A stretch of DNA of 64,000 nucleotides, taken from assembly GCF_003334305.1 (NCBI RefSeq), contig NZ_QOWS01000019.1. One strand, given 5' to 3'. This DNA is from Escherichia coli. GTDB taxonomy: Bacteria > Pseudomonadota > Gammaproteobacteria > Enterobacterales > Enterobacteriaceae. The notes under the pieces are model-generated. The model saw only the letters and a list, made by a program, of their open reading frames with translations. It was not told the origin of the DNA and did no database searches. A program made the position numbers and the translations under genes. Position 1 is the stretch's first letter; every line of letters starts with the position of its first letter. Of this stretch, positions 46,233 to 48,124 are shown piece after piece.

Positions 46233-47052
46233 TTGGAAAACGGATTTCCCCACGTCAAGAGAATTGATTTGAACGAGTGGCTTCGCTACAAACAGCTCCC
46301 GTTTGTGTGTGAAAAACCCCTCTCAACAGATCTCAACTCTGCACGATATCTACAGGAGATTGCTCCAAAAGGCAGTATCGTGTCTTTTAACTACCGATAT
46401 AACCCCGTCATCGACATGATAATGCGTCTGAGAAATGAGAAGAAATTAGGTGAACTGCATTTCTTCTCAGCAGAATTTAATAAAAATTCTGCACTGACCC
46501 GCCATCACCTGACCTGGCGAGACTCCGCACAACAGAGCAAAAGCAGCGGTGCTCTGGGCGATCTATCCTGTCATCTGCTTGATTTATTTTGTTTTATAGG
46601 GGAAAGCCCGGTAGTGGTTCATGGGATCAAAACGGTAAAGGGGACACGTGGGTACAAAATCAGATGGTCAGGTTGAAGTGGATGATAACGGCTATGTAAT
46701 GGGCAGTTCAGAAAAGGGAGCTTATTTCAGAGTTCATGCCAGTAAATCGGAAACAGATCATAATTTGGGACTGCATATACAGCTTGTATTTGAAAATGGT
46801 GAAATCAGATATTCAACCCACCATGAAAATCGCCTGCTCCTGATTCTATTTAATGATACGAATACGGAAACAATTGGCTTCGACGCTCTGAAACGCTTGC
46901 CTGATCCACCACGGGAGCTTCCATTCTGGTCTGATTCGTTTATTCATCTTCATGACGACTGGTGTGCTCTTATTAAATATGGTCACTCGTCTCCTAAGCT
47001 GGCGGACCTGTCATCCGGCCTTCATATACAGGAAATAATTGAGGCATTCTGA
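46233..47052 (+). pseudogene. Gfo/Idh/MocA-family oxidoreductase, N-terminally truncated and frameshifted
   Basis: Two consecutive ORFs in different frames carry the FVCEKPLS and GALGDLSCHLLDL motifs; the Rossmann N-terminus is absent. Confidence 0.55.
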
Positions 47053-47053
47053 T

Positions 47054-47323
47054 ATGGATACCATTCTTTTAACCGGGCTGTTTGCTGCATTTTTCACAAC
47101 GTTTGCGTTCGCTCCCCAGAGCATAAAAACTATCAGGACACGCAATACCGAAGGTATCTCCGTTGTTATGTATATCATGTTCCTGACAGGTGTAATCTCA
47201 TGGATAGCGTATGGCATTATGCGATCTGATTTTGCCGTACTGATCGCCAATATTGTCACACTGTTTCTGGCTGCACCAGTGCTTGTAATAACACTTATCA
47301 ACCGCAGGAAAAAACACGTATGA
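47054..47323 (+). CDS. SemiSWEET/PQ-loop family small membrane transporter
   Basis: About 89-aa protein from MDTILL with three predicted transmembrane helices and the APQ motif (FAFAPQSIKTIRT). Confidence 0.55.
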   Translation: MDTILLTGLFAAFFTTFAFAPQSIKTIRTRNTEGISVVMYIMFLTGVISWIAYGIMRSDFAVLIANIVTLFLAAPVLVITLINRRKKHV

Positions 47324-47586
47324 ATATTGCAATCATCGGCGCGGGTCCTGCCGGCATCATTTCTGCCCGTAATGCGATTAAAGCAGGTCACTCCGTGGTT
47401 CTGTTTGAGAAGAATACCCGAATTGGGGGGATCTGGAACCCCTGGAGTGGTGGCGCTTACCGTAATGCCTGTATGCAGAACTCTCGTTATACATTTCATT
47501 ATACTGGCTTTCCCCCTGGCGATATCGATGAACGAAGTTGGATGCAAATGTCAGATCGTGTGCGCCTGTTAGGGCGCGGCTGGTAA
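47320..47586 (+). pseudogene. FAD-dependent oxidoreductase/flavin monooxygenase, N-terminal fragment only
   Basis: 88-aa ORF starting MNIAIIGAGPAGI (dinucleotide-binding GxGxxG) and terminating early. Confidence 0.5.
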
Positions 47587-47613
47587 GAGAGCCTTATAGG
47601 CGCATTTGAAAAA

Positions 47614-47643
47614 CCTCCGGCTATGCCGGAGGATATTTATTTC
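47614..47643. terminator. Bidirectional rho-independent terminator
   Basis: CCTCCGGCTATGCCGGAGG hairpin followed by ATATTTATTTC; lies between convergent genes. Confidence 0.5.
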
Positions 47644-48124
47644 ATAATATTCTGAGCAGTCTTGCCGGGTTTCCTGCATAAATGCCTTTGTTCTCAATCG
47701 GTTTTACCACAACTGAACCCGCACCAATAACAGCTCCGCTGCATATATACGGAGACAGAATAATGGCTCCACTGCCAACAGTAACCGAATCCCCCAGGGT
47801 AATGCTGATCCAGTTATCCGGTGACGGATCTGGTGCTCCTGAACGAAACAGATCGTTGGCGAACGTCACGTTATGACCAATGAAGCAGTTCTCCCCCAGT
47901 GTTACGTTCTCACAAATAAACGTGTGCGACTGTATCCGGCTTCCACTACCAATGACACAGCCTTTCTGTATCTCAACGAAGGGGCCGACAAACACGTTGT
48001 CCCTGAGTTCACATTCATAAATGTTGACCGGTTTGACAATACGGACATTGGTCCCATAAATCACATCCCGGACAGCACATTCCATAAATTTCATACTCAC
48101 ACGTCCTTTAAATACAGATGACAC
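47642..48124 (-). CDS. Hexapeptide-repeat (left-handed beta-helix) acyl/acetyltransferase
   Basis: 160-aa ORF with repeated [LIV]-G-x4 hexapeptides (VIGSGSRI, TLGENCFIGHNVTF, VGSGAIIL, VIGAGSVV). Confidence 0.65.
   Translation of the reverse strand: MSSVFKGRVSMKFMECAVRDVIYGTNVRIVKPVNIYECELRDNVFVGPFVEIQKGCVIGSGSRIQSHTFICENVTLGENCFIGHNVTFANDLFRSGAPDPSPDNWISITLGDSVTVGSGAIILSPYICSGAVIGAGSVVVKPIENKGIYAGNPARLLRIL

Follow-up and report, generated by a model that had tools for sequence, protein, structure and literature searches.

A probable relic of a mobile kanosamine-type gene cassette on a ColV-Ia virulence plasmid of Escherichia coli

The stretch of DNA analysed here (the window) comprises 64,000 nucleotides of Escherichia coli (RefSeq assembly GCF_003334305.1, contig NZ_QOWS01000019.1) and is part of a ColV-Ia IncF virulence plasmid (ColV/ColIa). 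Positions 46224-48250 likely represent what is left of a 5.5-kb mobile cassette of six genes, which resembles the NtdABC/KabABC systems for kanosamine-type aminosugars and includes a SemiSWEET transporter; the remnant would be biosynthetically dead. The initial annotation, made from the letters alone, had described a decayed sugar-modification gene set with two apparently intact survivors, and all five elements that it listed were found close to where it had placed them. The region contains the following features:

46224-46279, plus strand: transposon-end-like solo relic (GGGGTCCGCTTGGAAAACGG..ACGTCAAG) followed by about 18 bp; left junction
46280-47052, plus strand: NtdC-like Gfo/Idh/MocA dehydrogenase pseudogene, codons 82-338 remaining
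47054-47323, plus strand: SemiSWEET gene, 89 aa, intact; NCBIfam SemiSWEET_2 at 96.7 bits (cut-off 80)
47320-47532, plus strand: class-B flavin monooxygenase, first 71 codons of 510; FAD (flavin adenine dinucleotide)-binding beta-alpha-beta fold only
47531-47642, plus strand: IS200C right end, 112 bp, 100% identical to chromosomal IS200C copies
47614-47632: IS200C terminal hairpin, GC-rich, 8-bp stem, 3-nt loop, T-rich tails on both strands (fold z = -3.6)
47642-48094, minus strand: hexapeptide (left-handed beta-helix) acetyltransferase gene, 150 aa, intact, convergent with the other genes
48095-48250, minus strand: acetyltransferase upstream region and presumed promoter, still collinear with intact cassettes

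In the parent cassette, all six genes of which are intact and annotated in pAPEC-O1-ColBM (NC_009837, 69,980-75,332), and which was also called complete in Salmonella and Photorhabdus, the genes are:

Gene 1: DegT-type, NtdA/KabA-like aminotransferase, about 410 aa
Gene 2: NtdB-like HAD-IIB/S6PP phosphatase, about 277 aa
Gene 3: NtdC-like Gfo/Idh/MocA dehydrogenase, 338 aa
Gene 4: SemiSWEET, 89 aa
Gene 5: FMO-like class-B flavin monooxygenase, 510 aa
Gene 6: hexapeptide acetyltransferase, 150 aa, convergent

DNA alignment of the window with the intact cassette yields two collinear blocks, 46280-47532 at 99.4% identity and 47637/47640-48138/48250 at 98.0-98.7%. Of the genes that define an NtdABC/KabABC operon, ntdA and ntdB are absent from the window copy and ntdC is broken, homology beginning only at its codon 82. 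Three structural lesions mark the pS88-type ColV-Ia lineage to which the window belongs: the left junction, a 2-bp deletion, and a replacement by an IS200C end.

The dehydrogenase gene had been described as a Gfo/Idh/MocA oxidoreductase that is frameshifted and lacks its N-terminus, and this holds. Its remains occupy two open reading frames (ORFs), 46233-46676 and 46648-47052, in different frames, and codons 1-81, including the Rossmann N-terminus with the GxGxxG NAD-binding motif, are lost. Alignment to intact copies places the 2-bp deletion that shifts the frame at 46648, in codon 204. The pseudogene DNA is 99.4% identical to intact 338-aa genes. When the Gfo fragment, mended across the frameshift, was used as the query of a homologue search, an intact 338-aa E. 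coli protein (P0001) was found at 98% identity, together with relatives from Salmonella, Erwinia, Pectobacteriaceae, Vibrio, Photorhabdus, Pantoea and Pasteurellaceae, some of them named NtdC or glucose-6-phosphate 3-dehydrogenase in their source records. A profile of this family separates a coherent set scoring at least 180 bits from generic Gfo/Idh/MocA proteins, which score at most 104 bits. The coherent set includes members from Bacillus, Staphylococcus and actinomycetes, many of which are named glucose-6-phosphate 3-dehydrogenase.

At the left junction, homology to intact cassettes starts only at 46280, and the first 16 residues of the Gfo ORF are spurious, being encoded by the DNA of the transposon-end-like relic. 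NR1/R100 and numerous further IncF plasmids contain a match to the segment 46223-46280 with approximately 88% identity; in ColBM plasmids, where the segment lies beside cvi, the identity is 96.5%. In all those plasmids the match ends exactly at 46280. Therefore, the relic is to be counted with the cvi flank, and ntdC became attached to it only later. The join runs across a microhomology of 3-4 bp. Recombination at this short microhomology connected the relic by the cvi promoter to ntdC codon 82; lost in the process were the promoter of the cassette, the ntdA and ntdB genes and the part of ntdC that encodes the NAD-binding N-terminus. A second copy of the inverted repeat was sought in the window and none was found, the relic occurring there once; no transposase was found beside the homologous relic in NR1. 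In pMUB-MIN11-1, the cvi/inverted-repeat relic is followed by cbi-cma-cmi, an integrase, hypothetical genes, pifC and further DNA, and the cassette is not located there. Derivation of the pS88-type arrangement from a ColBM-type plasmid by one simple deletion was considered and set aside as too simple, the cassette being found in several plasmid contexts.

The right-hand lesion affects the monooxygenase gene. The FAD-binding ORF is 88 aa long (47320-47586), and it had been described as a flavin oxidoreductase reduced to its first 88 residues. The truncation is confirmed; however, homology to the intact 510-aa gene stops at 47532, so that only 71 codons are native and the last 17 residues are foreign, read through DNA of the IS200C end. 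The window protein retains only the first dinucleotide-binding motif and lacks the FAD plus NADPH domain architecture of about 450-550 aa. The full-length 510-aa protein matches FMO-like (flavin-containing monooxygenase) Pfam families, with PDB 8ODW as its closest solved relative (9e-64), followed by FMOs and Baeyer-Villiger monooxygenases.

The foreign DNA at 47531-47642 corresponds to the right end of IS200C (IS200/IS605 family), including the terminal hairpin; it begins with the final two bases of the tnpA stop codon and ends at the terminus of the element. It replaces monooxygenase codons 72-510 and the native bidirectional terminator of the cassette (AAAAAGGGCC...GGCCCTTTT). The hairpin between the convergent genes, previously taken for their shared terminator, does have T-rich tails on both strands, but it is a part of the insertion sequence and the native terminator has been deleted. 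Unlike a complete IS200C, the window copy has neither the left end nor tnpA, only the 112-bp right end, and is therefore immobile. In an IncI-gamma/K1 ColIa plasmid (L008), the corresponding site next to the stop codon of the acetyltransferase gene is occupied by a complete IS200. The left end of complete IS200 copies, in the chromosome and in the IncI-gamma/K1 ColIa plasmid, directly follows a terminator hairpin and TTTTCTT(T). We infer that IS200C was inserted at the T-tract of the native terminator, and that the present arrangement may then have arisen through loss of some 2 kb between monooxygenase codon 71 and a point just beyond the tnpA stop codon.

Elsewhere in the window, a second IS200 fragment (17232-17589) comprises the left end and approximately the first half of tnpA, at 98% identity to the IS200 of L008, and lies a short way beyond the ets outer-membrane-factor gene (15552-16922). 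This fragment and the end at 47531-47642 do not add up to a full element, since some 260 bp are absent from both.

Sequencing errors had been named as a possible refutation of the decay. Nothing was found that speaks for assembly or sequencing artefacts in a locus with intact genes, and the probability of this is negligible. The identical sequence is present in hundreds of independent assemblies, including more than 100 independent complete plasmid records from different laboratories, and both truncation junctions abut recognizable foreign DNA. The frameshift and the truncations are real, because the identical sequence recurs in many independent complete plasmids. The segment 45500-48400 shows 100% identity with pS88 (NC_011747), with the E. 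coli type-strain plasmid and with Salmonella plasmids of poultry and chicken origin; 114 PLSDB records span at least 80% of it. Copies that cover at least 80% of the cassette occur in 59 PLSDB plasmids and in 65 of 5,426 complete genomes of E. coli; by subtraction of these 65 from 396, the relic form would occur in some 330 further genomes, roughly 6% of complete E. coli. Some part of the cassette is carried by roughly 650 E. coli genomes. The relic is an ordinary, recent and already annotated wreck, the RefSeq annotation of the five elements carrying the same labels. It has no obvious consequence for the plasmid, and its value is that of a pointer to the parent cassette.

The relic exposes an uncharacterized mobile six-gene cassette that is found on virulence plasmids of avian pathogenic and extraintestinal pathogenic E. 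coli, in Salmonella and in Photorhabdus, and in decayed form in the fire-blight pathogen Erwinia amylovora. Its assignment starts from the aminotransferase. Among solved structures, this protein is closest to KabA (7KZ3, 4e-91) and NtdA (4K2B, 3e-88), aligned over residues 12-408, and the next solved relative follows at 3e-50; the N-terminal extension typical of NtdA/KabA is present in the intact copies L003 and L014. The phosphatase of the intact cassette matches the Pfam families S6PP and Hydrolase_3 and the NCBIfam model HAD-SF-IIB (55.8 bits, cut-off 41.8). In Bacillus, the NtdABC/KabABC enzymes convert glucose-6-phosphate via 3-oxo-glucose-6-phosphate and kanosamine-6-phosphate to kanosamine. 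Like B. subtilis NtdABC and B. cereus KabABC, the parent cassette encodes those three types of enzyme in genes that lie side by side and point the same way. It differs in that it resides in Gammaproteobacteria, on plasmids and other mobile DNA, and carries in addition the SemiSWEET, monooxygenase and acetyltransferase genes. With these three extra genes, the end product may not be plain kanosamine. The UDP-kanosamine route of the rifamycin type (RifL/RifK/RifM) follows the same chemical logic of oxidoreductase, aminotransferase and phosphatase; however, the cassette aminotransferase is far from 3-amino-5-hydroxybenzoate synthase/RifK (1B9H, E 1e-20), and the cassette comes with no aminoshikimate genes. 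The pathway type is known, and the parent cassette represents a new form of it.

The initial annotation had suggested the remains of a glycan or small-molecule modification locus and proposed a comparison with intact homologous loci such as O-antigen or capsule modification clusters. This comparison was made, and the match is to a free-aminosugar cassette and not to such a cluster. An origin from a cell-surface glycan locus would agree with weak family matches of the acetyltransferase to NeuD/PglB/VioB, LpxD and WbbJ-type proteins, and of the aminotransferase to nucleotide-sugar aminotransferases. It is nevertheless highly improbable: no glycosyltransferase, nucleotidyltransferase, flippase or polymerase (Wzx/Wzy) gene was found in intact copies from five genera, and the O-antigen/capsule analogy thus fails for want of glycosyltransferases and nucleotide-sugar enzymes. 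In addition, the aminotransferase is far nearer to the sugar-phosphate enzymes NtdA and KabA (1e-88 to 1e-91) than to nucleotide-sugar enzymes (1e-50 or weaker), and the cassette is located on plasmids and DNA resembling integrative and conjugative elements (ICE-like) rather than in surface-polysaccharide loci. The small-molecule half of the suggestion was nearer the truth.

Based on homology and synteny, the intact cassette probably makes and exports a kanosamine-type aminosugar antibiotic with extra tailoring. Oxidation of glucose-6-phosphate at C3, followed by transamination and dephosphorylation, would give kanosamine (3-amino-3-deoxy-D-glucose). The monooxygenase probably has a tailoring role, possibly N-oxygenation of the product, which is a guess. 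The SemiSWEET dimer would let the product out of the cell, and the acetyltransferase could N-acetylate the 3-amino group, either for self-protection or as a tailoring step.

The SemiSWEET gene had been called intact, and is. As is typical of SemiSWEET proteins, its product is some 90 aa long, carries a PQ motif and three transmembrane helices and scores above the curated family cut-off, and it is identical in 89 of 89 residues to the crystallized EcSemiSWEET (PDB 4X5M/4X5N); the gene shows no nucleotide difference from the pAPEC-O1-ColBM copy. EcSemiSWEET has been used to describe the SemiSWEET transport cycle; its uptake of sucrose is slow and non-saturating up to 300 mM, and the W50A substitution, which enlarges the pocket, increases sucrose uptake (PMC4309421, Lee et al. 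2015). The ATG codon of the gene lies 1 nt past the ntdC stop, and its own stop codon overlaps the monooxygenase ATG; SemiSWEET is translationally coupled to its neighbours. In Escherichia, Salmonella, Erwinia, Photorhabdus, Rodentibacter and Zooshikella, ntdC is immediately followed by an orthologue of the SemiSWEET gene, and this placement is kept even where identity has fallen to 46-47% for NtdC and 53% for SemiSWEET. Residues P21 and Q22 (the PQ hinge) and W50 and N66 (the pocket) are invariant among these orthologues.

While the structural work treated EcSemiSWEET as a sucrose transporter, the conserved, co-directional and coupled position of its gene suggests a kanosamine-type monosaccharide as the natural substrate. 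The cassette context therefore offers a concrete candidate substrate for a crystallized protein that can be tried in its established liposome assay, and the link between cassette and EcSemiSWEET is a directly testable hypothesis. In the literature searched, no paper contains both "kanosamine" and "SemiSWEET", the text of a 2018 survey of SemiSWEET gene contexts does not contain the word "aminotransferase", and searches for kanosamine with Erwinia, or with flavin monooxygenase or ntdC, returned nothing on this cassette. The gene identical to EcSemiSWEET was seen on plasmids; the cassette search also gave 93 chromosomal matches.

Several points weigh against the reading of the region as a relic of a kanosamine-type cassette with a SemiSWEET exporter. 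When scanned against NCBIfam, the fragments and the six intact proteins had superfamily matches only; that collection contains no equivalog model for NtdA, NtdB or NtdC. The names in the dehydrogenase family come from automated annotation. The place of the monooxygenase in the pathway is a guess. Loci with ntdABC and no SemiSWEET gene occur in Vibrio hepatarius and Elizabethkingia; the transporter is therefore not obligatory. As regards the lesions, it is by inference that the IS200C insertion is placed before the deletion, and the segment 46224-46261, which resembles the 38-bp terminal inverted repeat of Tn3-family transposons/Tn21 (GGGG...ACGYTAAG), is no more than a candidate transposon end.

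The second survivor, the acetyltransferase gene, had likewise been called intact. This is correct, the 150-aa length being that of all orthologues, including those of Salmonella and Photorhabdus; its start is the ATG at 48094 and not the GTG at 48124 proposed earlier. The protein is full-length, has hexapeptide repeats (Hexapep and NeuD-family matches) and differs by 2 residues from the pAPEC-O1-ColBM copy. Its best solved relatives are the 3-aminosugar N-acetyltransferases WxcM-like, QdtC, VioB and WlbB (E about 1e-10), with which it shares the hexapeptide-repeat fold and a size similar to their catalytic core. Those enzymes use nucleotide-linked sugars, whereas here the substrate is likely to be a free or phosphorylated aminosugar. 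Positions 47640-48250 align to pAPEC-O1-ColBM at 98.7%; homology ends at 48250, and approximately 155 bp of DNA upstream of the gene are conserved. No strong sigma-70 consensus was found within 48095-48250.

Quantitative reverse transcription PCR on pS88 detected transcripts for all tested ORFs but one, including the acetyltransferase (pS88110) and the fragments pS88111-113 (PMC3438092). The fold changes of pS88110-113 were 0.31-3.02, none of them significant, and there was no induction by iron limitation, serum or urine; in contrast, ex vivo induction was 13-44-fold for the neighbouring cvaA/B/C genes and up to 21-fold for cia (PMC3438092). The SemiSWEET gene was left unannotated in that study (PMC3438092). 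In the window, this gene has lost the cassette promoter and sits behind a frameshifted pseudogene, and as judged from this arrangement it can be expressed only by read-through.

The acetyltransferase gene was also found alone in three other plasmid contexts (L021 6109-6953; L022 6306-6953; L008 4380-5564), next to either a 3' monooxygenase stub of 360 or 165 bp or a whole IS200. On pH22 and on the IncI-gamma/K1 plasmid the solo gene is two genes away from the colicin Ia immunity gene, and on a third plasmid it is directly beside the microcin B17 operon. Left-side erosion of the cassette has thus been seen repeatedly on bacteriocin plasmids.

Selection could in principle have kept the two survivors, as an orphan resistance module against the aminosugar antibiotic of competitors that carry the intact cassette. 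The acetyltransferase ORF is intact in at least four independent truncation architectures (the window, the IncI ColIa plasmid with IS200, the ColIa stub and the microcin B17 stub), has its own upstream region and a detected transcript, and has solved relatives that act on 3-amino sugars. The ratio of nonsynonymous to synonymous polymorphism (pN/pS) among its solo alleles is below 1, at 0.2-0.4. Yet the solo-copy values of 0.34-0.39 exceed the approximately 0.1 seen between intact cassettes and fit relaxed constraint equally well. The window lineage is only 0-2 residues away from intact copies, so that intactness is the null expectation. Some acetyltransferase copies are unannotated and changed in length (H186, H204, H206) and are likely pseudogenes; the truncations all come from the left, which the position of recombination-prone neighbouring DNA could explain; SemiSWEET has no promoter of its own; and the survivors are not known to confer a phenotype. 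We therefore regard maintenance by selection as unlikely. Equally doubtful is the compound proposal that EcSemiSWEET is a dedicated exporter of a kanosamine-derived antibiotic and that the acetyltransferase, with SemiSWEET expressed by read-through, is kept as orphan resistance on ColV plasmids; if true, it would provide a small-molecule counterpart of the surrounding orphan colicin and microcin immunity genes.

The intactness of the survivors reflects recent decay and not demonstrated selection. Because divergence from the intact copies is so small, intact ORFs are the neutral expectation, and the ratio of nonsynonymous to synonymous substitution rates for the window lineage is uninformative, with 0 substitutions in SemiSWEET and 2 in the acetyltransferase. 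The decay is recent, and its damage came from structural events, namely deletions, rather than point mutations.

Further copies of the cassette are subject to decay as well. On the E. coli plasmid contigs L003 and L004, whose cassette is otherwise complete, ntdB is frameshifted near a KKKLGG run (L003 9188-10001), while the gene is intact in pAPEC-O1-ColBM; insertions of IS66, IS3 or IS2 were found in several cassette plasmids. The E. amylovora chromosome (L005-L007) carries the six-gene cassette at about 7950-13300, flanked by genes for a SIMPL-domain and a LysE-family protein. Three assemblies of this species have a monooxygenase split by frameshifts whose places differ, and an acetyltransferase shortened by 20 residues, which suggests an independent decay. 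In Rodentibacter ratti (L012, Pasteurellaceae) the cassette or parts of it lie beside integrase and TraI genes in an ICE-like setting, and in the marine gammaproteobacterium Zooshikella ganghwensis (L018) they lie on a Rep3-type plasmid, flanked by IS91 and IS66. These two contexts show a wide horizontal mobility of the cassette.

The genes next to the relic on the plasmid are the following:

cvaB, plus strand, ending at 45419
45589-45900, minus strand: cvaC
45878-46114, minus strand: cvi
49640-51877: colicin Ia and its immunity gene

The relic had been placed downstream of cvi; since cvi lies on the minus strand, the region is instead upstream of the cvi promoter. In the cvi-cvaC promoter region (46101-46190), a Fur-box-like sequence, GATAATGATTATCGTTAAC, is found at 46163-46181 and overlaps a predicted minus-strand -35/-10 pair. 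Directly upstream of the cvi start, approximately TATCCCATTAC(T) is repeated three times in tandem (46108-46147). A direct repeat of about 540 bp with 95% identity (41052-41585 and 53110-53655) lies in the yacA/yacB toxin-antitoxin region. Its two copies bracket a module of about 11.5 kb that consists of cvaA-cvaB-cvaC-cvi, the relic, ydfA-ydeA-ybaA and colicin Ia, and they could serve as a substrate for excision or acquisition of this module via homologous recombination.

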